64,000 bases of DNA from an uncultured archaeon. Lineage in GTDB: Archaea > Aenigmatarchaeota > Aenigmatarchaeia > GW2011-AR5. Position 1 is the stretch's first letter. Every line of letters starts with the position of its first letter. Positions 13,730 through 58,538 of this stretch are shown here, one piece after another. The stretch is from NCBI GenBank assembly GCA_964373695.1, contig CAYJVT010000001.1:22328-86327 (forward strand), in the 5' to 3' direction. The notes under the pieces were generated by a model, which searched no databases, was not told where the DNA came from, and worked only from the letters and a program-made list of their open reading frames with translations. The position numbers and the translations under genes are program-made.

Positions 13730-14724
13730 TGGAGCACTTCCTCGTAGACATTTCCGGTCTTTTTCGCGGCTGTTTTCCACGTGAAATTATTCGACCTCTT
13801 CAGGGACTTCCTTGACATCTTTCTGGAAAGTCCGCTGTCGGCAAGTATGGACGAAACCTTGCTGCATATGTCTGCGGGGCTTTCCGGATCGAAGTATGTG
13901 GGGGCGTCGCCAAGTATCTCTGGCATTGCCGCAGCATTGCTTGAAGCCACCGGGCAGCCGCATGCCATGGCCTCGAGCGGCGTGAAGCCAAACCCCTCGA
14001 AAAGCGACGGGTATACGAACGCCCTTGCATTGGAATAGTACTCGGCCATCCCGTCCTCAGTAAGGTTCCCCGTTATTTTGACATCCTTCTCCAGTCCGAG
14101 GGACCTTATCCTCTCACGTATTGCCGGATTGTCGTAATTCTTGACCAGCTTCAGTCCCGGAAAATCCGCCTTCAGCATCGCGAAGGCGTCTATGAGGACC
14201 GGGATGTTTTTTCTCCTCTCTTCGGAACCGAAATAAACTATGTAATCTGCCTCTTTCTTCTTTCTTCGCGGCCTGAAAGCCCCGGATATCCCTGAATGCA
14301 CCACCCGTATGTCATCCTCTCGGGCCTGTGTGTATCTCATCACTTCGTTCTTGGTGAATTCTGATACGCATATTATTTTGCCGCATTTTTCCATGCCCTT
14401 TATAGCAAGCCTTGAGAAGAATGCATGCCTCCTGCTTTCAAAAAGCTCTGGTCTTGAAAACGCCATCATGTCATGGCAAGTTATTACCGTGGGCTTTCCC
14501 GTGGCAGACTTTGAAAGGTGCCCGAACGTCTGGGAGCTGAAATGGATGATGTCGCCACCGTCAAGATGCGGGGGCCGCATGTGCCTGAGGAACCCGTTTT
14601 CCGTCTCCTTTACCGTTATGCGGAATCCTTTTCCGATGTTCTTCGAAAGGCTCAGTATGTAGTTCTTTATGCCCCAGTTGTATTCGCTTCCGATACCGCC
14701 CGAAATCATCTGGACGTTTATCAT
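13726..14724 (-). CDS. Glycosyltransferase family 4
   Basis: 332 aa with ...PSLFEGFGFTPLEAMACGCPVASSNAAAMPEILGDAP..., the GT4 signature. Confidence 0.8.
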   Translation of the reverse strand: MINVQMISGGIGSEYNWGIKNYILSLSKNIGKGFRITVKETENGFLRHMRPPHLDGGDIIHFSSQTFGHLSKSATGKPTVITCHDMMAFSRPELFESRRHAFFSRLAIKGMEKCGKIICVSEFTKNEVMRYTQAREDDIRVVHSGISGAFRPRRKKKEADYIVYFGSEERRKNIPVLIDAFAMLKADFPGLKLVKNYDNPAIRERIRSLGLEKDVKITGNLTEDGMAEYYSNARAFVYPSLFEGFGFTPLEAMACGCPVASSNAAAMPEILGDAPTYFDPESPADICSKVSSILADSGLSRKMSRKSLKRSNNFTWKTAAKKTGNVYEEVLQ

Positions 14725-16220
14725 GAAGAAAACCTCTCCGCCACGGCTGCAAGCTTTTCAGGGAACGAACTCCTGATTATCATCATGTCGCTTTTGGTGA
14801 ATATTTTCACTTTGAGGAATATGCCGGCGTAGAACAGGCCCGCCAGCGATGCGCATATCGCGGCTTCGGCCAGTATGTTCATCGACAGAGCCTGCTTCAC
14901 GAAATAGATTATGACAACCGATGCGAGGGAGTTGGACAGGATGATTGATATGTCCCTCACTGGCGCCGATATTTTTATCTCTTTCCTGAGATGCAAATAA
15001 AATATCAGGAAACCTATGACGTATGAAGAAATGGCCGATGCGGCGGCGCCGGCGATGCCAAAAGCCGGCACCAGGATTATGTTTGCTGCCACGTTGAACG
15101 CCGACACTATAATGACAGTAAGCGTGCTTTTTTTGGGCTGTCCTATCGCGTTCAGGATGACAGAGAACAGGATGTTCATGCTGAAAAATATCATGCCAAA
15201 GCTGAGAACCTGCAGTGGCAGGGCGGAATCTATGTACTTTCTGCTAAGAAACAGGTCCATTATAATCTCGGGGAATGCTATGAATATGGCGGCCGCGAAC
15301 GCTATGAAAAGGAAAACGGACTTTATCATGAATTCCACATGCGTCGTCAGTTCCTTCTTATTCCCTTTTGCCCACATTTCCGACACCACAGGAAACAGTA
15401 TAACCGACAGCGAGCCGGCGAACACGAGGAGCATCTGCGATGTTGAAACGGCCGCCTGATAGAGTCCAACTTCGTATAGCGACCTGAAATACGTGAGTAT
15501 CATTGTGTCGGCAGAGCCTATGAGAAAAGTCGATATGCTCCCCAGAAAAACGAAGGAGCCGAATATTATGACATTCTTTTCCGAACCCATGAGTGCCTTC
15601 CCCTTCCCAAGACCCCTCACATGCTTTGCAACATAAAGCGCCATCATAACCTGTATCATCATTGACGCCGCGAAATAGCTCACGGCAACGCCGATGAGCG
15701 TGGCGTCGCCTGATGCCAATATGAAGGAGAAAATGACGGCTATTCTTATCGCTTCTATGAGCGAGAATGCAAGTATTTTCTGGAATCCCTGGAGGAGCAT
15801 TTTAAGGAACGATACTGCAAGCACCAGCTCGACTGAAAAAAGCTTTATCAGGAAGGATGCCTTCTCCGAGTGGAAGAAAGATAATGCTATGTAGTCGGAC
15901 ATCATGAAAGTTGCGAGCCCTATCACAGCCCCTATTGACAGCTGAAGCAGGAATGATGACTTTATGGCTCTTCCGATGGAAGCATAGGCTCCCTTTACCA
16001 TGAACTCTGGTATGTATTTTACCAGAGCCGAGCCGAGCCCGAAATCCTTTATCACGAAAAACAGCGAGAAAAAGGTCAGTATGGAATAAAAGAGGCCGAA
16101 ATCATCGACAGGGAGGCTCCTTGCAACAAATATCCTGAGAAGATATCCCATCCCGGTTCCAAGTATGGACAGTACAAAAGCAATTGAAGCGCCTTTTATT
16201 ATCCTGTTGGCGTAGCCCAT
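14721..16220 (-). CDS. Polysaccharide biosynthesis protein / oligosaccharide flippase (Wzx-like, MOP superfamily)
   Basis: 499-aa polytopic protein with ~12-14 hydrophobic helices. It overlaps the upstream gene by 4 nt. Confidence 0.75.
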   Translation of the reverse strand: MGYANRIIKGASIAFVLSILGTGMGYLLRIFVARSLPVDDFGLFYSILTFFSLFFVIKDFGLGSALVKYIPEFMVKGAYASIGRAIKSSFLLQLSIGAVIGLATFMMSDYIALSFFHSEKASFLIKLFSVELVLAVSFLKMLLQGFQKILAFSLIEAIRIAVIFSFILASGDATLIGVAVSYFAASMMIQVMMALYVAKHVRGLGKGKALMGSEKNVIIFGSFVFLGSISTFLIGSADTMILTYFRSLYEVGLYQAAVSTSQMLLVFAGSLSVILFPVVSEMWAKGNKKELTTHVEFMIKSVFLFIAFAAAIFIAFPEIIMDLFLSRKYIDSALPLQVLSFGMIFFSMNILFSVILNAIGQPKKSTLTVIIVSAFNVAANIILVPAFGIAGAAASAISSYVIGFLIFYLHLRKEIKISAPVRDISIILSNSLASVVIIYFVKQALSMNILAEAAICASLAGLFYAGIFLKVKIFTKSDMMIIRSSFPEKLAAVAERFSS

Positions 16221-16280: not shown

Positions 16281-18038
16281 TTATTTCTTTTCTATCACGT
16301 AATTCCCCATTGCAAGGTACCTGAGGCCGCTTCTCTCAAGGGTGCTGAAAGCGTCGTGCGGCGTGCATACGATGGGCTCGCCGTGCAGGTTGAATGAGGT
16401 GTTCAGTATGCCGCCGTGACCCGTCTCCTTCTTGAAGGTTTTTATCAGTGCATGGTAGCGGGGATTCCATTCCCTGTCAACCACCTGCGGTCTTGCGGTG
16501 AAGTCTGACTGGTGCAGGGCAGCGCGCAACGCGTCCCTGCCGAGAGGCGTCGTATTGAAGGACAGTATCATATACTGGTCATTGGCGGACTTTCTGGGCA
16601 TCTCAAGGAGCTTCCTCGCGTCCTCCCTCATTATGGAAGGCGCGAAAGGCATCCAGAAATCGCGCTGCTTTATCTGGGAGTTTATCTCAGTTATTGCGCG
16701 CATGTCCCGCGGGTCCGCTAGTATGCTTCTGTTGCCGAGGGAGCGGGCGCCGAACTCCATCCTGCCGCTAAGGCGGGCAACTATTCGCCCTTCTGACAGC
16801 ATCTCGCCGACAGCCTTGTCTATGTCCCTGTGGCTCTCTATCCTGTACTTCTTCCTGTCTATCCCCTTCACGAATTCATCTATTTTGTCGTCGTAGGAGG
16901 GTCCTAAATATATGTCCTTTATCTCTTCGAATATTGGTTTGGAGCCGTCTTCCTTGCACAAGTCCGCGTATCCAAGCATCGCGGCTCCGATGCAGCTGCT
17001 CTCGTCTCCGCCCGAAGGCATCGCGAAAATGCTGCCGACCTCAGGCATCTCCATAAGGCGCTGGTTGCATTTGACGTTCATGAAGAACCCGCCGCATACC
17101 ATTATATCGTCTATTCCGTAGCGGCTTATGCAGTTCCTGACCCATCCAGCCGTCACTTTTTCGGCCATGTTCTGCAACGCATATGCGACGGCGTCGAATC
17201 TGTGCTTGTGCAGGCTGTCCCTGAGGTAGAGGCCGTATGAATGCGCCCACCTCTTCGTCCTGTTCCTGAATTTGACCCCTCTGACATCAGCCATGCGCTC
17301 GAACACATCGACGGATTTCCTGGCGTAATGTTCTGATGAATATGGAGCAAGGCCCATAACCTTGTACTCATGCTCCCATGGCTTCATCCCAAGGTACCAT
17401 GTCACCTCGTTGTACATCTTCGCTATGGAATGTACGAAGGGTATCGAAACCGTGCGGTGGATGTCTCCGTTCTCCGCTATGCTGACCGTTGCGCACAGGC
17501 CGTCGCCCTCTCCGTCGGATGTGAATACAAGCCTCCTGCCCTTTGGCGTGCCCTTGAAATAATAAGCGGTCGCCGCATGGACCTTGTGATGCTCATACAT
17601 GACTATCGGCGCGGTTATCCCGATCTGCCTGAGGGCTTTCATGTACGCAGGGAGGAATTTTCTTGTCTTGTAGAAGCGCCTGAACCTCGTCGCGGCCGGG
17701 CACAATATGCTCTCCGTCACTTTCATGGGAAATATCCTCGCAGCATGGGAGAACGCGACTATGGATTTCCTTTTCTCCTTCCTCATCTTCGCTATCTCGT
17801 TCAGGTCGGCGGGGGTTATATCCTTCGAGCTGAAGGCGACGAGGTTTATCTGTTCGCCGTTTATTCCCTCATCGGACATCATTTTTTGTATGGAATTTAT
17901 GGGAAACCTGTGGTCGTTCTTTATCCTCGTCAGCCTCTCCTCTATTATGCAGGAAACTGTGCGCCCGTTTACCATGATACACGCTGAAGAGGGGTGGCTG
18001 TCATTGATTCCAAGAACTATCCTGTCTGTCATTTTCAT
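16281..18038 (-). CDS. Carbamoyltransferase, NodU/CmcH family
   Basis: 585 aa with an N-terminal Kae1/YgjD-like domain (MKMTDRIVLGINDSHPSSACIMVNG..., ...TSDGEGDG...) and a C-terminal carbamoyltransferase domain (...ILNTSFNLHGEPIVCTPHDA...). Confidence 0.75.
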   Translation of the reverse strand: MKMTDRIVLGINDSHPSSACIMVNGRTVSCIIEERLTRIKNDHRFPINSIQKMMSDEGINGEQINLVAFSSKDITPADLNEIAKMRKEKRKSIVAFSHAARIFPMKVTESILCPAATRFRRFYKTRKFLPAYMKALRQIGITAPIVMYEHHKVHAATAYYFKGTPKGRRLVFTSDGEGDGLCATVSIAENGDIHRTVSIPFVHSIAKMYNEVTWYLGMKPWEHEYKVMGLAPYSSEHYARKSVDVFERMADVRGVKFRNRTKRWAHSYGLYLRDSLHKHRFDAVAYALQNMAEKVTAGWVRNCISRYGIDDIMVCGGFFMNVKCNQRLMEMPEVGSIFAMPSGGDESSCIGAAMLGYADLCKEDGSKPIFEEIKDIYLGPSYDDKIDEFVKGIDRKKYRIESHRDIDKAVGEMLSEGRIVARLSGRMEFGARSLGNRSILADPRDMRAITEINSQIKQRDFWMPFAPSIMREDARKLLEMPRKSANDQYMILSFNTTPLGRDALRAALHQSDFTARPQVVDREWNPRYHALIKTFKKETGHGGILNTSFNLHGEPIVCTPHDAFSTLERSGLRYLAMGNYVIEKK

Positions 18039-18130: not shown

Positions 18131-19819
18131 ATGAAAAAATACGCGCTGGCGGCGGCGCTTTGCCTCCTGATTGCCTCGATGGTGCAGTATGCCCTCTTCT
18201 TCGGGCTCCATCCCGAAGGTCTGGTATTCAACTCGCTTGGCGAGGACGAGGCCCTGTTCGTCACTGCCATAAAGCTGTCTGAGTTCGGCTACGAAAGCCC
18301 GTGGACCTTGGAAAGCGACGGCGTTGTCAGGCTTGCGTTCCTGAACCCGGCTAACGGCCCGGTTTTCATGCTGTTCCCTATATCCGTTTTTTACGCCGCT
18401 TCCGGCATAAGTGCCTTGGGGCTATTTGCGCTCTTCAAGCTCTTTTCGGCGGCGTTGATGCTCGCAGCCATATACCTGCTTGTCAGGCATTTCGATTTCA
18501 AATCAAGGTATAGGATTTTTATCCTACTCGTGCTTTCTGCAGGGTTCGGCGGATTAATCCATCTCGTGTCATCCTTCTTTTACCCGGACCGCCTTCTGTA
18601 CCCACAGTCGCTTTTCGGATTCGGCGTCAGCATCTTCCGCTTTGTGGAATCCTATCAGGCGTTCTCGCTTGCCCTGGGGCTCATGTCCCTGTTATTTTTC
18701 GTGAAAAAAAGGATTCTTCTATCGTCAGCGTTCCTCGGATTTACGGTTCTCGTGTATCCTTTTCACGGCATATCGTTCTTCATAGTAATGGCCATTTATT
18801 GCCGCGTCTTTTCGCTTGGAGCGTCTCATATATCAAAGGTGTTCGCGGCCCTGCTGGCCTTTTCGTCTGTATGGGCATTTTCATACTTTTTCCAGCCGGT
18901 TCTGTTTGACAACTATGCAAATGCGGTAGGCACGGTGAGCGTCAACGTCCTGCCTTCCGTTCTCCTGGGACTGGGGCCTCTGTTCATATTTCTCCTGTAC
19001 GACATGAAGAAAAGGTTTCCGTTTGTTTCTGAAAGGAGGCATTTGGCGTTCTTTCTTGCATCCTTCGCGCTCATGTCGTACTACCAGATATCAAGCTCGG
19101 TGTGGGCGCCGCCTCTTCCCTCTAATCCACTGTTCGTCATTTTCAGCGTGCCATTCCTCGCCTTTCTTGGATATCTTGCAAAGAAGATGCTGGAAAGCGG
19201 GCATGAAAAGCGCATTGTTTTCATGTATGCGTGGTTCGTTGTATTCCTCTTCATTGTGGTGTTTCCAGTCAAGATATTCTCGGTTCTGCCGCCGAAGGTG
19301 ACGGTGTTCCTTTATTTTCCGCTTGCTTTCCTGGCTTACGAGGGGATGAAGAAATCCGGTAAAGTCTTTATTGCCGTTGTAGCGGTTTCTGCACTGTCAA
19401 TATTCTTCTTCTATTCGTTCGAGCAGATGGACGCCAGGGATATCTACGATAACGGCACCATTAAGGAGCAGAACTTCTTTTACACTGAACCAGACATAAA
19501 GGCTCTTGGTTTCCTGAAGGGCATGCCGGCCGGGAATGCGATATCATCTCAGGCCATAGGAACTTACCTGCCGTATTATTCAGGGAAGAAATCCCTTCTG
19601 TTCGGCACCAACAGGGGCGATATAGTCCTTAATGTGGGCGAAAAGCTTTCGGATTACAGGAAGTTTTATTCGTCTCCGGACAGAAGCGTTCTTGAAAAGT
19701 ACGGCATCAGGTACGTGTTTTACGGGACTTTTGAAAAACGCCTGGGAGATTTAGGAAGCCCCGATTATCTCAGAAAGGTGTACAGCGACGGCACCGAGAT
19801 ATACGAATTCATCCCATGA
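18131..19819 (+). CDS. Polytopic membrane protein with C-terminal soluble domain, GT-C-like; member of a 3-paralog family in this window
   Basis: 562 aa with >10 predicted TM helices. Its C-terminus ...EKYGIRYVFYGTFEKRLGDLGSPDYLRKVYSDGTEIYEF aligns with the C-termini of the proteins at 20515..22248 and 56706..58538. Confidence 0.5.
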   Translation: MKKYALAAALCLLIASMVQYALFFGLHPEGLVFNSLGEDEALFVTAIKLSEFGYESPWTLESDGVVRLAFLNPANGPVFMLFPISVFYAASGISALGLFALFKLFSAALMLAAIYLLVRHFDFKSRYRIFILLVLSAGFGGLIHLVSSFFYPDRLLYPQSLFGFGVSIFRFVESYQAFSLALGLMSLLFFVKKRILLSSAFLGFTVLVYPFHGISFFIVMAIYCRVFSLGASHISKVFAALLAFSSVWAFSYFFQPVLFDNYANAVGTVSVNVLPSVLLGLGPLFIFLLYDMKKRFPFVSERRHLAFFLASFALMSYYQISSSVWAPPLPSNPLFVIFSVPFLAFLGYLAKKMLESGHEKRIVFMYAWFVVFLFIVVFPVKIFSVLPPKVTVFLYFPLAFLAYEGMKKSGKVFIAVVAVSALSIFFFYSFEQMDARDIYDNGTIKEQNFFYTEPDIKALGFLKGMPAGNAISSQAIGTYLPYYSGKKSLLFGTNRGDIVLNVGEKLSDYRKFYSSPDRSVLEKYGIRYVFYGTFEKRLGDLGSPDYLRKVYSDGTEIYEFIP

Positions 19820-20510
19820 GCCTGATGGCCATGAGCCTTAGCGCCATGCGCGGGCCGGACTTTATCCTGAAAGTGGAGAATTCGCTGTGGGACCACTTTA
19901 CAGGGAATTCTATTATGTTTCCTCCGCTCTTTTTTATTCTCCACAGCATCTCGGCGTCGAACTCGAATCCGCCGGATTTCATGCTGGCCAGGCATGATAA
20001 CATTTTCCTCGTCATGACCTTGGCGCCGCATTGGGTGTCCGTAATCCCTAGGCCGAAGAGAATGTTGACGTAATGGCTGAAGACATTGCCGAGAAGCCGC
20101 CTGTAGGCCGGCTGTTTTTTCGTCACGAATGATTTTTCCATGTTGCGGGAGCCTATTACAATGCAGTCCGCGCTTTTCCGGCAAGTCTCCATCATGGAAC
20201 GGAAATTGCCGGGCCCGACGGAGCCGTCGGCATCCGTAAAGCCTATTATATCTCCGCTGGCATGCCTTAGCCCTTCCATCACCGCCCTTCCCTTTCCGAG
20301 CCGGTTTCCGGACTCGATGATTCTCACGTCCTTATGAGCCTTCATGAAGCTTTTCGTGATGGAAGCCGTCGTGTCGCTTCCGTCGCATACCACTATAATC
20401 TCAAACTTCATCCCTGACTTCTTGAAGTGCCTGAAATAAGACTCCAGCGTTCCTTCTATCCTCTTCTCCTCGTTGTAGGCCGGTATCACGATGGAATACG
20501 AATTCTTCAT
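19809..20510 (-). CDS. GT2 glycosyltransferase, dolichyl-phosphate hexose synthase-like (DPM1/AglD/AglJ-type)
   Basis: From MKNSYSIVIPAYNEE... with ...DGSDTT...TDADGS... (DxD). ~230-aa soluble GT-A. Confidence 0.8.
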   Translation of the reverse strand: MKNSYSIVIPAYNEEKRIEGTLESYFRHFKKSGMKFEIIVVCDGSDTTASITKSFMKAHKDVRIIESGNRLGKGRAVMEGLRHASGDIIGFTDADGSVGPGNFRSMMETCRKSADCIVIGSRNMEKSFVTKKQPAYRRLLGNVFSHYVNILFGLGITDTQCGAKVMTRKMLSCLASMKSGGFEFDAEMLWRIKKSGGNIIEFPVKWSHSEFSTFRIKSGPRMALRLMAIRLMG

Positions 20511-20514
20511 GGCA

Positions 20515-22248
20515 TCATCTTCTGTAAACGTCAAACTTTCCGTTCCCCCACACTTTGTCGCCCGAAGCCGCCGCTCCGGCGCTTCTTTCGTAGGGGCCTA
20601 TAAGTACGTAGTCTGCTCTGTATTTTTCCCGGTTGGCTGCGTCCTCCAAATACCTCCTGTAGTTTTCCAGTATGTCAGCTTTCTTGGATTCGGGTATTCC
20701 GCTTCCGTACTCGAGGGAAAAGAGGTAGAGGTCCCAGAATGCTATTTCGAAGGACGATTTATTGAACGTATTGGTTCTGTGGTCTATTATATAGGAATTT
20801 CTTGTCTCTTCGTTGTTTATCATTCCACTGACATGGGATTCGTTGATGCCCAGCATCGAGTATGATATGTAGAATCTCTCCCATATCTCATCCGTCGTTG
20901 CAAGGGAATACGGGCCGTAAGGAAGGTATACGTTGTTATGGGTGTAGAGCGGTATGAGATAGCTCTGCTCCGTGCTCAACGTCAGCACGACATCGTCCTT
21001 TTCCGTATTTTCATCGAGCCACTCGTAGAGCTCTTTGTCGCTGTCGTCTATGGCGTAGAGGCTGTGCTTTTTGTCGGCAAATGAATACTGCGAGTAGAAT
21101 CCTATCGAGAAGAGAAATATGAACAGAATAGCGCCTATCTTCCTCATATCAAAGCGCTTTTCCGCGGCCTGCCACAGCGCGTAAATCATCATGATGGAGG
21201 CGAATGGCGCCATTGCAAACTCGTAGTGGCTTTTCTGTATCGAGAATCCCGTGATTATCTGGGAGTTCATGAGGAAAATTCCGGAAATTATTATGGAGCC
21301 CATGAGGAGGGAAAAATAGTCTTTTTTTGAAAACGCGTAGAAAATGGCGATGATAACCGCATATTTTGCCGTCTCTGCTATAGGAAGAGGGGACGAATAA
21401 GTTTTTCCGTTCCTTGTCGATATGTCCTCCAGAAAGCTCTTGTCGAAGGACGTATAGGACAACCAGAAAGGCAGCGAAACCGCGGCGAATACCGCGAGTA
21501 TGATAACAACGTGCTTCAGAATCCCGGGATTTTTCTTTGCCGCAAAATAGATGGTATGGAGCGCGAGAACGCCTGCGAATATCGTCCAGTAGAAAAAATA
21601 CGTATAGAACAGGAGTCCTGAAACGAGCCCGCATAGGATAGAATAAAATGCCTTTCTTTTTTTCATGGAAATGTAGAGGAGGAATACGGAAATGGCGAGA
21701 AAGATGAAAGTCATCTGTATGTGCGGTATCCTGCCGAAATAATTAAGAGGCCCGGATGCGTCCAGTATGTTTGTCGCGTGATAGGATATGTTGCGCAATG
21801 TGACAGGCGGCGTCACAATATAATCAAAGGCTATCAGCATGAAAACCGGCGCCAGGATGCTCAGATGAAGGTTTCCGGTCTGCCTGTAGATGAGCATGTA
21901 GATTATGAGAAATATTATGACTGGGAAGATGAAATTGCCGGCCGCGAAGGCGCCGGAAACCGAGCCTGAAAGAAGCGACATCGCTGCCAGTAGAGCCGTC
22001 GGAACGAGCGGCACGAAGGGGTTTATTTTGCCCTTGTATTCGTAAACGGTCGGGTCTCCTGGTATGTTGCCCTCGTAAAAATCCCTCGCAAGGGATGCGT
22101 ACGTAGTCTGGTCCCTGGAATACGCAAAAACGCCGTTGACGGCAAGCTGTGTGTAGCTGTCATCCCCTCTGAAGAGGGGCATCAGGATATTGGCTGTGGA
22201 AAAATAGATGCCGCAAAGAAGCGCCGCGGCCAGCACTATCTTTTTCAT
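20515..22248 (-). CDS. Large polytopic membrane protein, GT-C-like, paralog A
   Basis: 577 aa. The N-terminus MKKIVLAAALLCGIYFSTANILMPLFRGDDSYTQLAVNGVFAY... and C-terminus ...EWLDENTEKDDVVLTLSTEQSYLIPLYTHNNVYLP... are clearly homologous to 56706..58538. Confidence 0.6.
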   Translation of the reverse strand: MKKIVLAAALLCGIYFSTANILMPLFRGDDSYTQLAVNGVFAYSRDQTTYASLARDFYEGNIPGDPTVYEYKGKINPFVPLVPTALLAAMSLLSGSVSGAFAAGNFIFPVIIFLIIYMLIYRQTGNLHLSILAPVFMLIAFDYIVTPPVTLRNISYHATNILDASGPLNYFGRIPHIQMTFIFLAISVFLLYISMKKRKAFYSILCGLVSGLLFYTYFFYWTIFAGVLALHTIYFAAKKNPGILKHVVIILAVFAAVSLPFWLSYTSFDKSFLEDISTRNGKTYSSPLPIAETAKYAVIIAIFYAFSKKDYFSLLMGSIIISGIFLMNSQIITGFSIQKSHYEFAMAPFASIMMIYALWQAAEKRFDMRKIGAILFIFLFSIGFYSQYSFADKKHSLYAIDDSDKELYEWLDENTEKDDVVLTLSTEQSYLIPLYTHNNVYLPYGPYSLATTDEIWERFYISYSMLGINESHVSGMINNEETRNSYIIDHRTNTFNKSSFEIAFWDLYLFSLEYGSGIPESKKADILENYRRYLEDAANREKYRADYVLIGPYERSAGAAASGDKVWGNGKFDVYRR

Positions 22249-22340: not shown

Positions 22341-23804
22341 ATGTCGGAAATTCTTCTCATCCAGCCAAATATAGGCATACACGATTTCCTAGCCACCAGA
22401 TTCCCCGACCCTCTGCTCGCAATAGCCTCGGTGCCGCATATGAGGGGTTACAAGGTCAAGATACTTGACCAGAGGATAGAAAAAAACTTCAAGCATCTTC
22501 TGGAGCAGGAAATCGGAAAAAAGCCGCTGTGCATCGCCCTGCCTGTTATGACTGGCGGCCAGATACTCCGCGCCCTTGAGATATCGAAATTCATCAGAAG
22601 CATCGACAAAGACATAAAAATAGTCTGGGGCGGGCCGCATCCGACATTATTCCCTGTCCAGGTCTTGGAAAATGAAAATGTGGACATAATCGTGTCGGGC
22701 GAGGGCGAAATAACGTTTTTCGAGCTTGTCGAGGCTCTTTCAAAAGGCGCTCCTCTTTCAGGCATAAAAGGGATATCGTATAAGGAGGACAGCAGCATAA
22801 AAACGAATCCGGAAAGGGAGCTTATCAAAAATCTTGATGAGCTGCCGCCTATTCCATACGACCTGATAGACGCAAGCAAATATAATCCGACATACATATC
22901 AGGAAGGAAAGCCTTCACGCTCCTGACATCGAGGGGATGTCCATATCGATGCACGTTCTGCTTCGCTACTGCATACTACAACTTCACATGGCGCGGCTAT
23001 TCCGTGGACAGGACGATGGAAATGATACATGAAGCTGTCAACAAATTCGGCGCGCAGACAATACTGTTCCAGGAAGACAACTTCGCGACCAGCATACCGA
23101 GATGCAACGAGATATTTGACAGGATTATAGCGGACGGCCTCGACATTACGTTCAGCCTGGTGGGTATACGCGCCACCGATGTCGCAAGGATGGACCTGGA
23201 CAAGATGTACAAGGCCGGGTGCAGGAACTGCGACATGGGCGTCGAATCAGGGGACCCTGAAGTGATGAAAACCATGATAAAGGCCCTGACGCCGGAACTC
23301 GTCCTGGACGTGAACAGGAAGATAAGGGATTACGGCATAAAGGTGAAATATTCCTTCATAGCCGGCCTCCCGATGGAGAAGGACCCGAAGATATCGATAA
23401 ACTTCGCATTCAAGCTCATAAAGGAGAACAAGAACGCGTATACGCCGTTCTTCCCCTACACGCCTTTTCCGGGCACTGAAATGTACCATGCCGCGATAGA
23501 AAAAGGCTTTGTGCCGCCAACAACGCTCGAAGGCTGGGGCAATTTTGACCTGGAGCACTGGAGGGACCACTATCCCAGCTGGTACACAGAAGAGGAGAAG
23601 CGATGGATAGAGGGCATAGAAAGGATGTCGGTCCTAGGGAACCGCAACTCGAAATACAAGATATCAAACAAGACTTTCAGGTTTTTCTTCGACCTGTACC
23701 ACCCGATTGCCAAGTTCAGGTTCATGAGGAACTACTACGGGATGCCGCTTGACATAAAGATGCAGAACAAGGTCATGAATATGGTAGTCAAGACGCTTGA
23801 TTAA
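22341..23804 (+). CDS. B12-binding domain radical SAM enzyme (class B rSAM, probable C-methyltransferase or related)
   Basis: 487 aa with an N-terminal cobalamin-binding Rossmann domain and a radical SAM motif SRGCPYRCTFC (CxxxCxxC), then ...GVESGDPEV.... Confidence 0.85.
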   Translation: MSEILLIQPNIGIHDFLATRFPDPLLAIASVPHMRGYKVKILDQRIEKNFKHLLEQEIGKKPLCIALPVMTGGQILRALEISKFIRSIDKDIKIVWGGPHPTLFPVQVLENENVDIIVSGEGEITFFELVEALSKGAPLSGIKGISYKEDSSIKTNPERELIKNLDELPPIPYDLIDASKYNPTYISGRKAFTLLTSRGCPYRCTFCFATAYYNFTWRGYSVDRTMEMIHEAVNKFGAQTILFQEDNFATSIPRCNEIFDRIIADGLDITFSLVGIRATDVARMDLDKMYKAGCRNCDMGVESGDPEVMKTMIKALTPELVLDVNRKIRDYGIKVKYSFIAGLPMEKDPKISINFAFKLIKENKNAYTPFFPYTPFPGTEMYHAAIEKGFVPPTTLEGWGNFDLEHWRDHYPSWYTEEEKRWIEGIERMSVLGNRNSKYKISNKTFRFFFDLYHPIAKFRFMRNYYGMPLDIKMQNKVMNMVVKTLD

Positions 23805-25636
23805 TCAATAACAACGAGCTGCTCGTTCACGGATTTTTTTGTCTCTTCAAGATTCGGATAAAGGCTGAACGCCTCGAACTTGTCTCTCCAGTATTCCGAC
23901 TCGCTTAGATATTTCTCTACAAGCCGTATTCTTTCAGCCGCCCCGCCGACGTTGCCGGAATTAAACTCGCATGCGGCAAGCGTCATGTTTGCAAGCGCGT
24001 GGCCTGAAGTGACCACATCGCATATGTATCTCATCTGCCTGACGATCTTAGACAGCCTATCACGATCTTTTATGTTCATGACCCTCTCGTAATTTATTTT
24101 ATAATTCATGTAGAACCATATATCCATCAGCTGCTCCGAAGTCGGCTCCGCATCCAGGTTGCCGCTTTCGAATGGGTTGGCGAATTTTTTCACTTCCTTT
24201 TTGTGCTCGACGGTGTTCTGCTTCCCGTGGGGGCCTATCATGAACCGCGTTTCATTCGTCTGGAGCTTGTCCTCTATCAGGCCCTCTTTCACCATCGCCT
24301 TGTATATCGGGGTAGAGGGCAGAGGCTGCAGTATGTTCAGTGCATACCAGTCCAAGTCCAGCTCAAGTGCAAGGTTCATGGTATCGAGCATCATTCTCAG
24401 CGTTTCATGGGGAAAGCCCAGCATGAGGAAGCCGCGGGAGAATATCTTGGGATATTTCCTTAGAAGGGCCGCCGCATTCCTGAAATTGTCCACTGTCCCG
24501 GGCTTTTTTATGTCCAGAAGTATTTTCGGGTTTCCGGATTCGATGCCGAAGAAAAGCCCTATGCATCCCGATTCGGCCGTAGCCTCTATTATAGCAGGCT
24601 TGCACGCAGCAGCTATGACGCCGTTGGAGGCGTCCCATGTTATGCCGAGGTTGCGCCTTTTTATCTCCTGGAAAAGCTCTATTGTCCTCTTCTCGTTGAA
24701 GAAAAGGTCGTCGTCAAGCCACATTATATGCTTCACGCCGTATTTCCTGGCAAGGAGTTCTATCTCGTCCGCAACGCTTTCAATGCTTCTCTGCCTGACA
24801 CCCATGCCATTGAAGCTGCGGACGCTGCAGAACGTGCACATCGCCCGGCATCCCTTGTTGGAAAGCACGGTCGCGACCCTGGTTCCTGGCTCAAGCAGCG
24901 CAGTGAAGGAGCCGATGGTGCCCACGGAAGAATAATTCGATATATCGACAAGATCGTACGCCGGTATCCTGTTCAAATCATCCGTCTCCGGTGCCTTCCT
25001 TTCCTCCAGCGAATAATATTTGCCGCCTGCAATCACTGACACCTGATAAATCTCATCCCCATGACCGTTCGCGGCCTCAAGAAGCTTCTGGAAAGCCACC
25101 TCGCTCTCGTAGGAGCATGCTATGAGCCTTTCGTAGTCTATTGAGCGCAGAACCCTTTCTGTGTCGTTAGACACGTGAACGCCTCCGACAATTATCGGCA
25201 GTTCCTTTCCGGCGACCTCGCTGCATACTCGCACAAAGCTGTCGTGCGTCATCGTGAACATGCATGTTATGCCGACCGCGTCAGGCCTGAATTCGTCAAT
25301 CTTTCTGGCCAGAAGGCCTTTCCATTCGGCATCGTAATCCATCTTGCCCCCTGATTCCACGGCCCTCTTTATCACATGATAATTTAGGTCGACAATCTCG
25401 GGCTCGTGGCCATTCTCTCGCAAAACGTCGGCGAGAAGCAGCGGGCCATAAGGCGGATATGTATAACACCTTTTCTGCAATGCGGCCTCAAAGTTGAATT
25501 CCTCTGATGCGATGTCCGGCGGGTTGACGAGAAGCACCTTCCTAGCTTTTTTTCCGCCGAATATCTCGCGTATTCTCGCCAATATTGCCGCCTTCGCCTC
25601 CTGTCCCGGCTCGTGCTCTTTCAGAAGCTGCTCCAT
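23801..25636 (-). CDS. B12-binding domain radical SAM enzyme
   Basis: 611 aa with ...LLVNPPD... B12-like N-domain, NKGCRAMCTFC (CxxxCxxC) and ...FGIESGNPKIL.... Its stop codon overlaps the convergent rSAM gene's stop within the palindrome GATTAATC. Confidence 0.85.
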   Translation of the reverse strand: MEQLLKEHEPGQEAKAAILARIREIFGGKKARKVLLVNPPDIASEEFNFEAALQKRCYTYPPYGPLLLADVLRENGHEPEIVDLNYHVIKRAVESGGKMDYDAEWKGLLARKIDEFRPDAVGITCMFTMTHDSFVRVCSEVAGKELPIIVGGVHVSNDTERVLRSIDYERLIACSYESEVAFQKLLEAANGHGDEIYQVSVIAGGKYYSLEERKAPETDDLNRIPAYDLVDISNYSSVGTIGSFTALLEPGTRVATVLSNKGCRAMCTFCSVRSFNGMGVRQRSIESVADEIELLARKYGVKHIMWLDDDLFFNEKRTIELFQEIKRRNLGITWDASNGVIAAACKPAIIEATAESGCIGLFFGIESGNPKILLDIKKPGTVDNFRNAAALLRKYPKIFSRGFLMLGFPHETLRMMLDTMNLALELDLDWYALNILQPLPSTPIYKAMVKEGLIEDKLQTNETRFMIGPHGKQNTVEHKKEVKKFANPFESGNLDAEPTSEQLMDIWFYMNYKINYERVMNIKDRDRLSKIVRQMRYICDVVTSGHALANMTLAACEFNSGNVGGAAERIRLVEKYLSESEYWRDKFEAFSLYPNLEETKKSVNEQLVVID

Positions 25637-25735
25637 ACAAGAACTAGCATTTCACAGTTTTTAAAACTTGTAAAAGCAGTTCACGCCCTGCAGGTGGCTA
25701 TGTTGCCTGCAAGACCGAAAGCGATGGAATTATCA

Positions 25736-26143
25736 TTACGCGCTCGGGATCAACGTTCTTTTCCTCAGGTCCCTTTGTAATCTGGGGCGCAGCAAGATGT
25801 CCCTGAATGCGTCACCGACAAGGTATGTTCTTGTCATGAACTCGTCCTCGCTTATGCCGAAATTTTCTCTCGCCGCCTCCCTGTGCATGACTTTGTCTGG
25901 AAATTTCTCGTCAGCGCCGAGCCAGAAATGAAGGTATTTGGCAATTTTATGATATGTTACAACTCTGTCAAGATGCTCCTGCGGTATTCCTGTCGAGATG
26001 CATGCATGATTTCCGCCTTCTGCCATTCTCCTTAGGCATGCCTCGGCGTCGTCGTACAGGGGATATATTCTCGAAGTAACTCTTGATACGTATTTTCTTG
26101 CCAGTTCTTCCGCCCTTTCAGCCGGAAGACCAAACATTCCCAT
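25736..26143 (-). pseudogene. N-terminally truncated HAD-like hydrolase (motifs II-IV present, DxD motif I absent); likely a gene remnant
   Basis: 135 aa with ...CISTG... and ...TRTYLVGDAFRDIL... (HAD motifs). The upstream in-frame sequence is open to a stop at 26237-26239 but has no DxDxT motif. Compare the intact paralog at 32935..33594. Confidence 0.4.
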
Positions 26144-26213
26144 GATTTCCGCATACTGGTGCCCGGCAGGCTTTCCGCCTCCTTCTTTTAAGCTTATCTG
26201 CGATATGTGAAAA

Positions 26214-27149
26214 ATGCAAGCTGCAAGGATGGAAGACTATCTGTCTTCTTTGGGATTCAGAGACCTGACAATATATTTGGGCACTGCTGTCAGTATCGGA
26301 AGCCAATCGCTTTTGGACGCGAATAGGCATCTTTTTTCAGAGGATTTTGAAATGAAACCTGACGGTTCGATGGTTGGCGTTCTTGACAAAACAAGCGATG
26401 TGGCCATTGCAGCATATCTTAATTCTACTCCTGCAACTGAAGCCTGCAGATTCAGGTCAGAGGAAGGGATGGAATTCAGGCAGCCGTCTGAATATGAATA
26501 TGGGGCAATAATAGACCCTTTGGACGGAAGCATAAATCCACGAATAGGCGGGACAAACTTGCACTACATCGGAGTGGGCGGGGCTATTCACCAAAAGCCC
26601 GATGATGAACAGGTTGCTGCGGCAGCCTGTCTGCCTTTTGATGACGATGCCTTGTACGTGACGGAATGGGGAAAAGGAGTCTATAGAGTAACAAATACTG
26701 ATGGAGATTTTCAGTCAAGAAAATTGACGGTACCTGAGAAGCCTGCCCAGACAAATACTTTTATACAGTCAGGATGGCGGACTCCTTACACAAGAAAGGC
26801 GGAGGAAGCGCTTCACAGAAGCGGATTTTACGAGGAACTTGACTTCAACGCAGGCGACACGGTGACTGCCGGTATCTTCCAGACAATTTCCGGTATAAGG
26901 GATTACAGACAGGTCGTGATTAATATCGCGGCTACGCATCAGGCGGATTTTTGCTATCTGTTCCTTAAGGAAACAGGTATGAATCCCATAGCAAACGACG
27001 GCAGACCGATACATTCACAGGCATGCGCTATGCTTTCCGTATCGCCATCATACAGCAAAGATGCAAGTAGGCTTAAAGGAAAATTTGTCGAAGCTTTGCA
27101 TGATTACAGCGGCCATAACAACACCGGCATGCAGCGCGTCTGCGACTAA
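26214..27149 (+). CDS. Inositol-monophosphatase family phosphatase (IMPase/FBPase/CysQ-like)
   Basis: ...AIIDPLDGSINP... metal-binding motif with an upstream Glu and C-terminal Asp motifs. The start is uncertain (26214 or an internal Met at 26352). Confidence 0.65.
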   Translation: MQAARMEDYLSSLGFRDLTIYLGTAVSIGSQSLLDANRHLFSEDFEMKPDGSMVGVLDKTSDVAIAAYLNSTPATEACRFRSEEGMEFRQPSEYEYGAIIDPLDGSINPRIGGTNLHYIGVGGAIHQKPDDEQVAAAACLPFDDDALYVTEWGKGVYRVTNTDGDFQSRKLTVPEKPAQTNTFIQSGWRTPYTRKAEEALHRSGFYEELDFNAGDTVTAGIFQTISGIRDYRQVVINIAATHQADFCYLFLKETGMNPIANDGRPIHSQACAMLSVSPSYSKDASRLKGKFVEALHDYSGHNNTGMQRVCD

Positions 27150-27179
27150 TCATTTAAGCCTTTTTCTCATACGTAAAGC

Positions 27180-27824
27180 ATGCCAGGTCTCATAATACAG
27201 CACCGCGTCAACAATATAGGCGCGCTCCGCAAGATACAACCAAAATACGGCGTGGAGATAGACATCCGTCACGACAACAGGACAGGCAGCCTGTATCTGA
27301 ACCATGACCCGGGAGAGGGCGACGACTTCTTTGAATATTTGGATGTTTTCGCGGAGCAGGGCAACCGCTTCGCTATATTCAACCCGAAAGAAATCGGCAT
27401 TGAGCAGCGAATAATAGAAGCTGCCAAGGAACGCGGCATTGAGGACTACTTCCTTCTCGACCTTGAATTCCCTTTCATATATCGTGCCGCTCAAGGCGGC
27501 GTGCCAAACATCGGCAAACGCATCGCCATCCGCTATTCAGAGGCCGAGCCTTTGGAGCAGGCAATGCTGCTCAAAGGCAGGTTTGACTGGGTATTCGTCG
27601 ACGTCAACACTCGCCTGCCGCTCGACAAAAAAATATGCAATATGCTTGATGAAGCAGGCTTCAGGACCTGCATCGTATGCCCGTCGCGCTGGAAGCGTCC
27701 TGATGACATACCAAAGTTCATAGAGCAGATGAAGAAAGAAGGCATAAAGATAGACGCTGTCATGACCAAGGACCCGTATGCAGAACAGTGGGAGAACAGC
27801 GGCGTTGTGAGGCCGTTCAAATGA
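27180..27824 (+). CDS. Glycerophosphodiester phosphodiesterase-like (GDPD/PI-PLC-X TIM barrel), short form
   Basis: MPGLIIQHRVNN...GVEIDIRHDNRTGSLYLNHD... follows the GDPD pattern HR...E-I-D-I...DG..V..HD. The C-terminus reads ...GIKIDAVMTKDP. Confidence 0.5.
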   Translation: MPGLIIQHRVNNIGALRKIQPKYGVEIDIRHDNRTGSLYLNHDPGEGDDFFEYLDVFAEQGNRFAIFNPKEIGIEQRIIEAAKERGIEDYFLLDLEFPFIYRAAQGGVPNIGKRIAIRYSEAEPLEQAMLLKGRFDWVFVDVNTRLPLDKKICNMLDEAGFRTCIVCPSRWKRPDDIPKFIEQMKKEGIKIDAVMTKDPYAEQWENSGVVRPFK

Positions 27825-28691: not shown

Positions 28692-31172
28692 ATGGGGCTC
28701 GTGGAAAGGCTTGAAGCGGGCGACAGGATAGGAAGCCAGTTTTCAAGGTTCGTCGTCATAGGCGGCATAAGCACGCTGATAAACTACGCCGTTTTCCTCG
28801 TCCTGTATGCCATGCTTTCCGTAAACTACCTTGTCGCGTCAGCCGCCGGCTACGTGGTCGGCGCCGTCTTTGGATATTACTTCAACGCCCGCCTGACCTT
28901 CAGGAGCAGGCCCGGCCTCAGCGTGATGCCCTATTTTGCCGTATACCTGTTCTCGCTGGTGGCGGGTCTTGGGGTGCTGAGGTTCTTCTCTGTGTCGGCC
29001 GGCATAGAGCCGCTGTTTTCAAACGTGATTTCAATAGCGTTCACGGCGGCGGCCAACTTCCTGGGGTGCAGGTATCTGGTTTTCGGCGGCCTGAAAATAC
29101 CTTCGGTATTCAAAAGTAAGGCATTCCTGTCTGTGCTTGCCTTAAAGATAATTTTCGCCTTTCTTTTAGCCTCGGACTTCATGACGCAGCTCTTCATACC
29201 GTTTGTGCAATATTTCGTCGGGAACCCGCTTTCAAATCCCTACCAGCATTTCATCGACATAGGCAACGTGAAGGCGTTCCCGTACCCCCCATTCATGCTC
29301 CTGGTAGTCTCCGTCCCGTACATGCTGTTTGGCGTCTTCAGCGGGCCGTTTTTTGAGCTTTTCGCGATGCGTATACCGCTTCTGGCGGCCGACATAGCGA
29401 TATTCTACGTTCTGTACAGGATTCTGGACGGGAAGAAGGTGATGCTCCTCTACTGGGCGTCCCCTGTGGTGTTCTACATAACGTATATCCACGGCCAGCT
29501 CGACATAATACCCGTGGCGCTCCTGTTCCTGTCAGCCTATTTCCTCAAAGGCCGTCAGTACGTGAAATCCGCGGCCCTCCTGGGCGCCGGCATCGCGGCG
29601 AAGTCGTTTGTCTTCGTGGCGCTTCCTCTTTACCTCGCTTACCTGATAAAGAAAAAAATCCGCTGGATAGGGACGGCTGCATTTTTCGCCATTTCCCTGG
29701 GGATGTATGCCGCCTTCCTCGTGCCCTTTGTCTTCAGCGAAGGCTTCGTCCGCATGGTATTCGGCGCCGAGGAGCAGTTCAGGCTGTTCAATCTTTCGGT
29801 GGATTTAACCCTTGGCCTGGTCTATTACATAGTTCCTGCAGCCTATGCATACATACTTTTCAAGGCATTCTCCTTCAAGAGGATGACGAGTGACATGCTG
29901 TTCGTCCTTCTGGGCATGACCCTTACATTTCTTGTCACGTTCATACATCCTGAGCGCGGCTGGTATATGTGGGCTATCCCGTTCGTAATCTATTTTCTGG
30001 TGAAGGAGAGGATAAGCGTATGGATTTACTCGGCTTTCAATGCCGCGTACCTCCTTTACTTCCTTTTCGTTCCGGACTCGGACGTGTTCCGCGTATTCCA
30101 GGTGGTGTGGCCATCTATATCATCACTGATGACGCCGTACTACATGCTGGTTTCCGCAGGAATCCCATCGGACATACTGGTCAACGTCCTGTTCACCGCC
30201 ATGACGTCGGCGCTGCTTTACCTTACGTACATAATCTACAGGAGGGGCGTCAGAAGCGGTCTGCTGTTCCAGGAGAAGAACGGAATACCGATAATAGGGA
30301 TAGGAGGCGACTCAGGCTCCGGCAAGACCACCCTTGCGAAGACTCTTTCGGAACTGTTTGGCAGGGAGCGCGTGACGACTGTATACGGGGATGACATACA
30401 CAGATGGGAGAGAAAAGACAGTAACTGGGAAAAGTATACGCATCTCAACCCTGCCGGAAACAGAATTTACCTGAATTACAGGCAGATAAGGAAGCTGAAG
30501 GGCGGCGCCACGATAAGCAGGCCGCATTACGACCACGGCACCGGGAAATTCACTTCCCCGTCCAGTATAAAGCCGAGAGACATAATAATCTCCGAAGGCC
30601 TCCATACGTTTTTCATCAGCGAATCCAATAGCATCTACGAAATAAAGGCTTTCCTTGACCCCGATCCATCATTAAGAGTTCTGTGGAAGCTCAGGCGTGA
30701 TATGAAGCTCAGGGGATACTCAAAGAAGGAGGTAATGAAGAAACTTGGGCAAAGAAGGCGCGACTCAGACAGGTTCATCGCGCCGCAGAAGATGTATGCC
30801 GACATGGTGATTTCTTACATGCCTGAAGGGAAGGTGAGCTTTTCCGACATTGAAAATGACGTTCCTGTAAGGCTGCAGATCGACGTGAAGAACGACATAC
30901 CGCTCGAAGGTTTTCTGGAGGCTGCGTCCGGAATAAAATCTCTCGGCATAGAGATGGAATACCATGACCACAGATTCCAGCGCATGGTGTTCAGGGGCGG
31001 CGCTTCGGTGGAAGATATTGGAAATCTGCTGAACTCCCTTGACATAGATTACGAAACGTACGAAATAGACAGGAACGGAATCAGGGGCGGGTTCGACGGC
31101 ATTTTACAGGTTATTTTCCTTTATTGCCTCAACGAAAGGCTCAAGGTGCTGGGTGGTGGCGGCGATGAATGA
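28692..31172 (+). CDS. Three-domain fusion: GtrA-like module + GT-C-like polytopic membrane domain + phosphoribulokinase/uridine-kinase-family P-loop kinase
   Basis: aa 1-125 FSRFVVIGGISTLINYAVFLVLY...FLGCRYLVFG (GtrA); aa ~130-520 carry >10 hydrophobic helices; aa ~525-826 carry GIPIIGIGGDSGSGKTTLAKTL (Walker A) and ISEGLHTFF...FLDPDPSLRVLWKLRRDMKLRGYSKKEVMKKLGQRRRDSDRFIAPQKMYADMVI (PRK signature region). Confidence 0.8.
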   Translation: MGLVERLEAGDRIGSQFSRFVVIGGISTLINYAVFLVLYAMLSVNYLVASAAGYVVGAVFGYYFNARLTFRSRPGLSVMPYFAVYLFSLVAGLGVLRFFSVSAGIEPLFSNVISIAFTAAANFLGCRYLVFGGLKIPSVFKSKAFLSVLALKIIFAFLLASDFMTQLFIPFVQYFVGNPLSNPYQHFIDIGNVKAFPYPPFMLLVVSVPYMLFGVFSGPFFELFAMRIPLLAADIAIFYVLYRILDGKKVMLLYWASPVVFYITYIHGQLDIIPVALLFLSAYFLKGRQYVKSAALLGAGIAAKSFVFVALPLYLAYLIKKKIRWIGTAAFFAISLGMYAAFLVPFVFSEGFVRMVFGAEEQFRLFNLSVDLTLGLVYYIVPAAYAYILFKAFSFKRMTSDMLFVLLGMTLTFLVTFIHPERGWYMWAIPFVIYFLVKERISVWIYSAFNAAYLLYFLFVPDSDVFRVFQVVWPSISSLMTPYYMLVSAGIPSDILVNVLFTAMTSALLYLTYIIYRRGVRSGLLFQEKNGIPIIGIGGDSGSGKTTLAKTLSELFGRERVTTVYGDDIHRWERKDSNWEKYTHLNPAGNRIYLNYRQIRKLKGGATISRPHYDHGTGKFTSPSSIKPRDIIISEGLHTFFISESNSIYEIKAFLDPDPSLRVLWKLRRDMKLRGYSKKEVMKKLGQRRRDSDRFIAPQKMYADMVISYMPEGKVSFSDIENDVPVRLQIDVKNDIPLEGFLEAASGIKSLGIEMEYHDHRFQRMVFRGGASVEDIGNLLNSLDIDYETYEIDRNGIRGGFDGILQVIFLYCLNERLKVLGGGGDE

Positions 31173-45229: not shown

Positions 45230-45230
45230 A

Positions 45231-47473: not shown

Positions 47474-47549
47474 GACATTATTCGAAACTCCTGTATATAT
47501 TCATAAATTTATTTGGGCATGTTATGTTACCAAAAACTTTGGTGTAAAT

Positions 47550-48437: not shown

Positions 48438-48442
48438 TAAAT

Positions 48443-58518: not shown

Positions 58519-58538
<20 letters not shown>
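56706..58538 (+). CDS. Large polytopic membrane protein, GT-C-like, paralog B
   Basis: 610 aa: ...LPNFLMPVLRGDGAYTPLLVKDVNTYAVDQT... and ...DWLNENTEKDSVVFTMSVEQNSLIPVYTHNNVFIP... parallel 20515..22248 throughout. Confidence 0.6.

Follow-up and report, generated by a model that had tools for sequence, protein, structure and literature searches.

What do the large polytopic membrane proteins encoded in the glycan-biosynthesis island of an uncultured Aenigmatarchaeota archaeon do, and how are they related to each other? The 64-kb stretch of contig CAYJVT010000001.1 analyzed here (the window; 49.6% G+C) is, by Pfam annotation, almost wholly such an island, and four of its proteins (A, B, C and D; Table 1) had been singled out in an original prediction, made from the DNA letters and their translations, as a family of candidates for glycan transfer resembling the GT-C glycosyltransferases. 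All four reading frames were confirmed at the coordinates given there. GT-C enzymes carry out extracellular steps of glycan assembly. We propose that B, C and A are probably the terminal enzymes of multi-component extracytoplasmic glycosylation of the GtrABC or AglDRS kind, adding single lipid-carried sugars to surface glycans. In the following we describe their relationship, the fold, the size of the family, the company that its genes keep and the residues that it conserves, before weighing this proposal against its alternatives.

B and C align over their full length with 35% identity, far above chance (BLASTP E 8e-105), and the peptides quoted when they were first called paralogs were found in both. 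B has nearer relatives elsewhere (P0003, 64%; P0004, 59%), as does C (P0007, 54%; P0010, 49%), which itself scores 589 bits against the family hidden Markov model (HMM). Since each of the two has its own closer relatives, the duplication must be old. At least two family copies, sometimes adjacent, occur in other genomes (loci L040, L041 and L073, and the contig pairs L014/L028, L025/L030 and L037/L055), so that expansion by paralogs characterizes the family in general. The place of A is less apparent from pairwise comparison, in which it matches B only over 52 C-terminal residues (BLASTP E 5e-4) and C with an E value of 0.025. This agrees with the C-terminal motif that A had been predicted to share with the other two, and the homology extends well past it: when hhalign was used to compare an alignment of A and four homologs with the B/C family profile, built from 62 sequences, 458 columns were aligned with a probability of 98.4% (E 1.1e-14), and the short loops rich in lysine and arginine fell in register between the two. 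Against the same B/C profile the Wzx flippase of the window reached a probability of 0.6% and the middle portion of a GtrA-PRK fusion protein 0.2%; since these two polytopic proteins, which are unrelated to the family, scored so low, the link to A is not an artifact of hydrophobicity. As judged from these profile comparisons, A is a true but distant homolog of B and C along nearly its whole length. A is also present on a Logan contig, with gene order unchanged; an exact search of assemblies for B gave no match.

D belongs to a separate family. It matches Pfam PMT_2 (PF13231) with an E value of 1e-11 and 45.7 bits, against a gathering cut-off of 26.1, which bears out its earlier description as an ArnT/PMT-like GT-C enzyme. 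No BLASTP match joins D to B, and the hhalign match of D to the 62-sequence profile is weak (87% probability, E 3.8e-6, residues 43-180 of D). A fifth GT-C candidate had been placed in the 826-residue GtrA-PRK fusion, and this was not supported: Pfam detects only a GtrA domain (residues 19-131) and a P-loop kinase domain resembling PRK and uridine kinase (residues 534-715), and the polytopic middle of ~400 residues between them has no relative in Pfam, in the PDB or, at the 0.2% given above, by hhalign against the family. The joining of a flippase-like domain to a kinase is an unusual combination.

The fold was modeled for B, and A and C are assigned to it by their homology to B. With the 62-sequence alignment as input, the AlphaFold2 (AF2) model of B reached a mean predicted local distance difference test score (pLDDT) of 94.2 and a predicted TM-score (pTM) of 0.93, with all five models at a pLDDT of 93.3 or above. 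In a Foldseek search of the PDB with this model, ranks 1-28 were all GT-C glycosyltransferases, 19 of them with E <= 1e-3; these included PglB (5ogl; E 6.6e-8, TM-score 0.52), AftA (8if8; TM-scores 0.54/0.52), human and yeast STT3, DPY19, ArnT, ALG3, ALG12, EmbA/B, AftD and PimE. Transporters entered the list from rank 29, with probabilities of at most 0.2 and TM-scores of ~0.1, and no Wzy, WaaL or SEDS structure was among the 50 listed matches. Consistent with the original prediction of GT-C-like proteins, the model indicates that A, B and C are most likely membrane glycosyltransferases of the GT-C fold (GT-C_A-like). If the likeness to GT-C enzymes were instead an artifact of modeling, the three proteins might be polymerases or ligases of the Wzy/WaaL type, transporters or structural proteins. 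Such a reading could appeal to the moderate TM-scores, to the absence of any significant sequence match to solved structures, and to an earlier AF2 run on seven sequences, set aside here, whose model was poor (pLDDT 62.7). It is made highly improbable by the agreement of five models at pLDDT 93-94 once 62 sequences were used, by the late entry of transporters and the absence of Wzy, WaaL and SEDS from the listed structural matches, and by two observations described below: conserved polar residues gather in outside loops, beside an acidic first loop, and fusion to glycosyltransferase family 2 (GT2) and GtrA domains recurs in the family, which would be hard to explain otherwise.

That this family had not been described was also part of the original prediction, and the databases agree with it. 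No Pfam or NCBIfam model matched A, B or C above threshold, and PMT and PMT_2 did not match them in Pfam even at E values up to 1; a single family member carries a name at its source, 'hypothetical protein', and no other name was found. B and C match DUF6798 (PF20604) with 15.3 and 14.2 bits, below its gathering score of 26.9, over ~25 residues where the C-terminal domain begins (segment W410-x-x-x-N-T), which is less than half of the 61-position model. In a Pfam scan of 62 members, four touched DUF6798 at E <= 0.01, two touched PMT_2 (best E 6e-5) and one DUF6541, and in a Pfam scan of the best 150 family representatives one (P0104) weakly matched Dpy19. Our literature searches found no paper on DUF6798 or on GT-C enzymes in Patescibacteria. 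The family is nonetheless large. An exhaustive HMMER search with a seven-sequence profile against cluster representatives at 50% identity returned 2830 of them at E <= 1e-3, 1978 at E <= 1e-10 and 943 at E <= 1e-30, and nearly all of the listed matches were ~560-650 residues long and aligned end to end; word-indexed homolog searches, which gave just six proteins even with the 62-sequence profile, badly understate it. Genomic contexts were collected by scanning a single genome for each species with two specific peptide patterns, which gave a biased sample of 80 loci. Approximately 44 of these came from the Candidate Phyla Radiation (CPR)/Patescibacteria, the commonest group, about 10 were archaeal (Aenigmatarchaeota, Nanoarchaeota, Micrarchaeota and metagenome-assembled genomes (MAGs) labelled Methanosarcinales), about 10 were from MAGs labelled Gammaproteobacteria or Proteobacteria, and the rest were from Chloroflexota, cyanobacteria, Planctomycetota and others.

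The genes that accompany the family point to a role in the transfer of single sugars. The probable ATG, at 20510, of a GT2 gene on the same strand (19809..20534) comes 4 nt past the TGA stop codon of B, an arrangement that is kept in a MAG of Candidatus Aenigmatarchaeota (L002). A is convergent with this gene, and the stop regions of the two overlap by 11 nt. The nearest solved relatives of the encoded GT2 are the dolichyl-phosphate-mannose (Dol-P-Man) synthase of P. furiosus (5mlz; E 5.6e-11), ArnC and GtrB, and its top NCBIfam matches (PgfS, AglJ, PpgS, ArnC and Dol-P-hexose transferase) all fall below the equivalog cut-offs; the fused GT2 domains of family members P0032 and P0111, the two that were scanned, match the same NCBIfam set, likewise below cut-off. 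From this GT2 and those found in fusion with family members we built an HMM for GT2 enzymes resembling dolichyl-phosphate-mannose synthase (DPMS), against which the gene beside B scores 317 bits, a value that is partly circular because the sequence was included in the model. These relationships suggest that it is likely the polyprenyl-phosphate sugar synthase that serves B as a partner. C lies downstream of, and on the same strand as, a second GT2 gene, whose 315-residue product ends in two hydrophobic helices (hydropathy peak 2.4 at residues 243-261) and scores just 77 bits against the DPMS-like HMM; it is a candidate donor synthase for C, a weaker assignment than that of the gene beside B. 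The presence of a separate GT2 partner for each of B and C, together with their separate orthologs, is consistent with the earlier suggestion that the paralogs use different sugars or acceptors. Approximately 1 kb upstream of D, a pair of small GT2 genes scoring 92 and 140 bits against the same HMM, with ArnC among their NCBIfam top matches, may likewise encode polyprenyl-phosphate sugar synthases.

The same association recurs far from this locus. In the Pfam scan of the best 150 family representatives, seven carried a fused N-terminal GT2 domain (P0032, P0051, P0058, P0104, P0111, P0126 and P0146), one a GtrA domain (P0142) and one a GT4 domain (P0024). Of the 82 family genes at the 80 loci, 49 are found no more than 3 kb from a DPMS-like GT2 gene, nearly always read in the same direction; in 15 of the 49 it is fused or within 200 bp, and extending the distance to 3-5 kb adds only four more. 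GtrA-like genes abut the GT-C gene at three loci (L021, L023 and L034). At nine CPR loci (L042, L046, L047, L056, L059, L067, L070, L077 and L081) the GT-C gene is separated from the DPMS-like GT2 by a gene for a conserved protein of ~290 residues (for example L047, 4002..4868), in which we recognize by eye a CxxC...CxxC zinc ribbon at the N-terminus and a core resembling class I S-adenosylmethionine (SAM)-dependent methyltransferases; the system may have a fourth component in this protein, such as a methylase of sugars or lipid-linked sugars.

We next consider how the proteins are placed in the membrane and which of their residues are conserved. Taking the helices from the model of B and averaging loop charges over 139 family sequences, we found that loops rich in lysine and arginine alternate with neutral or acidic ones. 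The segments assigned to the inside (the N-terminus and residues 122-127, 196-200, 237-242, 306-311 and 362-369 of B) have net charges of +0.7 to +3.3, and those assigned to the outside (28-80, 146-177, 215-219, 266-290, 327-339 and 398-577) are neutral or acidic, with mean net charges of -3.65 for the first loop (28-80) and -4.4 for the C-terminal portion (398-577). B is accordingly modeled with its N-terminus inside, 11 predicted transmembrane (TM) helices and a predicted C-terminal alpha/beta domain of ~180 residues outside; in the model the first outside loop includes a short helix and a further, juxtamembrane helix (81-94). Residues conserved in at least 70% of the sequences are found mostly in the outside loops or at the outer ends of helices. 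They include four acids of the first loop, D46 (Asp in 86% and Glu in a further 11%), E47 (73%), D65 (80%) and E70 (96%), as well as Y32, Y50, G60, D105, P109, R173, Y215, Y217, R279, N328, Q330, G334 and H341 (95%), and in the C-terminal domain W410 (98%), T436, H437, E454, R458, D546 and Y547.

The acid at position 46 is of particular interest, because an Asp followed by Glu or Gln occurs 15-20 residues past TM1 in all four proteins (D39-E40 in A, D46-Q47 in B, D48-Q49 in C and D46-E47 in D). The pair of D is aligned by hhalign with that of B, and in A it is part of an invariant G-x-D39-E40-A-L in the first loop, within a pattern of loop charges like that of B and C. In view of this conservation, the first-loop Asp (D46 in B) is a better candidate for the catalytic residue than the (L/F)LMP..RGD segment originally put forward as a catalytic or acceptor-binding motif of the family. 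The RGD does lie where that proposal would place it, at the outer, extracytoplasmic end of TM1 (residues 27-29 of B) and not on the cytoplasmic face, as far as the charge-based topology tells. It is not family-wide: R27 is present in 10, G28 in 30 and D29 in 21 of the 139 representatives, and the motif is confined to the B/C subclade. B also carries D29-D30 within this segment.

The conserved loops also bear on whether A, B and C might be oligosaccharyltransferases (OSTs) like AglB, PglB or STT3, moving an oligosaccharide en bloc from lipid pyrophosphate onto Asn or Ser/Thr. PglB and STT3 are the best structural matches of B, and the island, with its Wzx-type flippase and many GT4 and GT2 genes, could build a lipid-linked oligosaccharide (LLO). 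However, a regular-expression scan for WWD[YWF]G-like motifs was negative in A, B, C and every other open reading frame (ORF) of at least 90 aa in the window, as had been predicted for the WWDYG motif of AglB, and A, B, C and D have no WW dipeptide at all. OSTs have a long, flexible external loop 5 (EL5) that bears a catalytic Glu (TIXE/SVSE); the TM9-TM10 loop, which we assume to be its equivalent, is only ~13 residues long throughout the family and has no conserved acid, being the site of N328, Q330, G334 and H341. Moreover, AftA and ArnT, which use sugars carried on lipid monophosphate, score about as well as PglB in Foldseek, and being fused or adjacent to GtrA and to a GT2 resembling polyprenyl-monophosphate sugar synthases is the signature of GT-C enzymes that add monosaccharides. 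An OST role for A, B and C is thus unlikely, and we assign it only a very small probability.

The adjacency and fusion of the family to GT2 and GtrA is the gene logic of multi-component systems, and on that basis we propose a scheme of three steps, in which a lipid is charged, flipped and relieved of its sugar. First, a cytoplasmic GT2 of the DPMS/GtrB type would load one sugar from a nucleotide sugar onto dolichyl or polyprenyl phosphate; for B this would be the work of the GT2 encoded next to it. A flippase would then turn the lipid-linked sugar outward, for which the window offers two candidates, the GtrA domain of the GtrA-PRK fusion, a candidate flippase for lipid-linked monosaccharides judging from its Pfam match, and the Wzx-like protein. 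Finally, on the outer face, the GT-C enzyme would hand the sugar over to its acceptor, which is probably a glycan made by the island, either of the cell surface or of an S-layer glycoprotein, with the conserved first-loop Asp (D39 of A, D46 of B, D48 of C) as a putative catalytic base and the outside C-terminal domain perhaps helping to bind the acceptor.

Systems of this design are well known. In GtrA/GtrB/Gtr* of Shigella and Salmonella, CsbB/GtcA/YfhO and GacI/GacK/GacL, a GT2 that makes a polyprenyl-phosphate sugar works with a GtrA or Wzx flippase and a polytopic GT-C enzyme (PMC8035078; PMC11127046). The present family resembles them in that a GT2 is adjacent or fused to it, that GtrA is fused or adjacent in some members, and that a GtrA domain and a Wzx are encoded in the window. 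It differs in that A, B and C match none of the Pfam-defined GT-C families of those systems at E values up to 1, in that the GtrA domain of the window sits within a kinase fusion, and, from the bacterial examples, in its DPANN host, whose carrier is probably dolichyl phosphate. An archaeal precedent for the pathway logic is AglD/AglR/AglS of Haloferax volcanii, a Dol-P-mannose synthase, a flippase factor and a mannosyltransferase that adds the last sugar to the S-layer N-glycan (PMC3871713): here too a single sugar on a separate dolichyl phosphate is flipped and added outside to an existing glycan. A, B and C have no above-threshold match to PMT_2 and are set beside AglS by description alone. 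The closest parallel in layout is perhaps GT136, founded in 2024 on ORF12 of Citrobacter youngae, which has 11 TM helices, a small helical domain after TM1, a proposed catalytic Asp just past TM1 and an extra domain after TM11, and which is a member of a three-component system together with a polyprenyl-phosphoribose synthase and a MATE flippase (PMC11127046). The B family shares this layout at the level of AlphaFold models, the comparison being one of architecture alone; its partner is a DPMS-like GT2 rather than a phosphoribosyltransferase, and its C-terminal domain is mixed alpha/beta, unlike the beta-rich carbohydrate-binding module of GT136 (PMC11127046). With the structurally solved GT-C_A enzymes PglB/STT3 (GT66), DPY19 (GT98), AftA (GT85), ArnT (GT83) and PMT (GT39) the B family has in common an acid in the outside loop that follows TM1 and a C-terminal domain that lies outside, past the TM bundle; A, B and C have no WWDYG and match none of the Pfam models of these enzymes above threshold.

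The same chemistry could be directed to another acceptor. Several CPR, DPANN and other archaeal lineages carry protein surface layers, and A, B and C might be protein O- or C-glycosyltransferases resembling PMT, TMEM260, DPY19 or PgfM that place a single sugar directly on S-layer or pilin proteins. The faint sequence links to PMT_2 and Dpy19 would fit this, as would the distribution seen in the genome scan, in which CPR bacteria predominate and archaea, DPANN among them, also appear, and the GT2 adjacent to B has as its top NCBIfam match PgfS, the GT2 of streptococcal protein glycosylation, far below cut-off. On the other hand, MIR and TPR domains are absent, nothing points to an acceptor, and an island for the assembly of polysaccharides or LLOs, with its Wzx, GT4s and sugar-modifying enzymes, fits the decoration of glycans at least equally. 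We regard direct glycosylation of proteins as rather unlikely, and continue to favor the decoration of surface glycans.

It is important to note that several observations weigh against the proposed scheme. The family has no characterized member. Its structural matches share 10-12% identity with the model, at TM-scores of 0.44-0.54, a likeness at the level of the superfamily, and neither B, the family profile, the profile of A nor D gave a significant sequence match to PDB chains. A lacks a same-strand GT2 of its own, for 33 of the 82 family genes no DPMS-like GT2 was found within 3 kb, and the window has no free-standing GtrA gene, its GtrA domain being found ~6 kb from B inside the fusion protein. 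Furthermore, B, C and their nearest relatives have Gln in place of E47 and Asn or Ser in place of D105 (positions 49 and 109 of C). The two substitutions, the second of them at the outer end of TM2, occur together in the B/C subclade, in 6 of the 139 sequences. Position 105 is variable outside this subclade as well (Tyr, Lys or Asn), and in divergent members the acid moves between columns 46 and 47. That the paired substitutions mark the loss of a metal site is speculation. The active site of the Aenigmatarchaeota subclade might be a modified one, perhaps independent of metal or using another donor.

Table 1. Positions of the proteins under study, their candidate partners and neighboring genes in the window.
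Feature	Position	Strand	Description
A	18131..19819	+	562 aa; distant homolog of the B/C family
B	20515..22248	-	577 aa; most likely GT-C-fold membrane glycosyltransferase, unnamed family
C	56706..58538	+	610 aa; paralog of B
D	41957..43429	-	490 aa; PMT_2 (ArnT/PMT-like) GT-C, separate family
DPMS/GtrB-like GT2	19809..20534	-	233-241 aa; Pfam Glycos_transf_2 E 2e-30
GT2 of GtrB-like architecture	54676..55623	+	315 aa; Pfam Glycos_transf_2 E 2.5e-34
4,6-dehydratase gene	55639..56586		between the 315-aa GT2 and C
Two small soluble DPMS-like GT2 genes	39594..40286, 40318..41028	+	Pfam GT2
GtrA-PRK fusion	28692..31172	+	826 aa
GtrA-like domain of the fusion (aa 19-131)	28692..29100	+	Pfam GtrA_DPMS_TM E 1.7e-18
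Wzx-like flippase	14721..16220		Pfam
NodU/CmcH-type carbamoyltransferase	16281..18038	-	divergent from A
B12-binding radical SAM enzyme	22341..23804	+	adjoins B
B12-binding radical SAM enzyme	23801..25636	-	adjoins B, with the preceding gene
ORF without Pfam match	26214..27149		311 aa
Same-strand run of sugar-pathway genes	43488..50257	+	see text
Thiamine-diphosphate enzyme	48431..50257	+	acetolactate-synthase type; in the run above
Radical SAM protein	62480..63958	-	with LAGLIDADG_3 segment

The remainder of the island is given over to the making and modification of sugars. Its Pfam content includes the Wzx-type flippase, several GT4 and GT2 enzymes, nucleotidyltransferases, 4,6-dehydratases or epimerases, a UDP-sugar dehydrogenase, a carbamoyltransferase, two B12-radical-SAM enzymes and a DegT aminotransferase. 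Gene order around A and B is shared with a contig of the Candidatus Aenigmatarchaeota (DPANN) MAG L002, which is from groundwater, the encoded proteins being 81-95% identical, and the window is therefore very likely derived from an organism closely related to it. The arrangement of the radical SAM pair and the carbamoyltransferase about A and B is also found in that contig; these neighbors suggest methyl and carbamoyl decorations on the glycan. The ORF of 311 residues has no BLASTP counterpart in the syntenic contig, where the neighbor genes corresponding to those at 25636..27180 of the window are ~30 nt apart (715..3295 of L002), and it may be a strain-specific insertion. Farther downstream, the same-strand run encodes a nucleotidyltransferase, a 4,6-dehydratase, a DegT/E1-like pyridoxal-phosphate enzyme, a GT2, an epimerase or reductase and the thiamine-diphosphate enzyme, and presumably resembles pathways to 3,6-dideoxy or branched-chain sugars (yersiniose/YerE-type). 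The radical SAM protein near the end of the window contains a segment like LAGLIDADG_3 homing endonucleases (residues 102-187) ahead of its radical SAM core (residues 247-398), which may be an intein or endonuclease insertion.

What is new here is a large and uncharacterized sequence family; its fold, its gene logic and its likely chemistry are already familiar from three-component systems. No new mechanism is revealed, and since new GT-C families still appear, a specialist may not be greatly surprised by another. The family profile, the model, the candidate Asp and the predicted partner nevertheless make the function directly testable. To our knowledge the surface chemistry of CPR and DPANN organisms is almost unknown, and it probably matters for attachment to their hosts. 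It is conceivable, if rather doubtful at present, that these proteins constitute a new GT-C family at the level of CAZy and the main extracytoplasmic decorator with single sugars in ultra-small CPR and DPANN episymbionts, diversified by paralogs, each with its own lipid-sugar synthase, and thereby varying the surface glycans or S-layer proteins of these cells. More immediately, recognition of the family could improve the annotation of thousands of 'hypothetical' membrane proteins, and would be useful for the study of CPR and DPANN surface biology.

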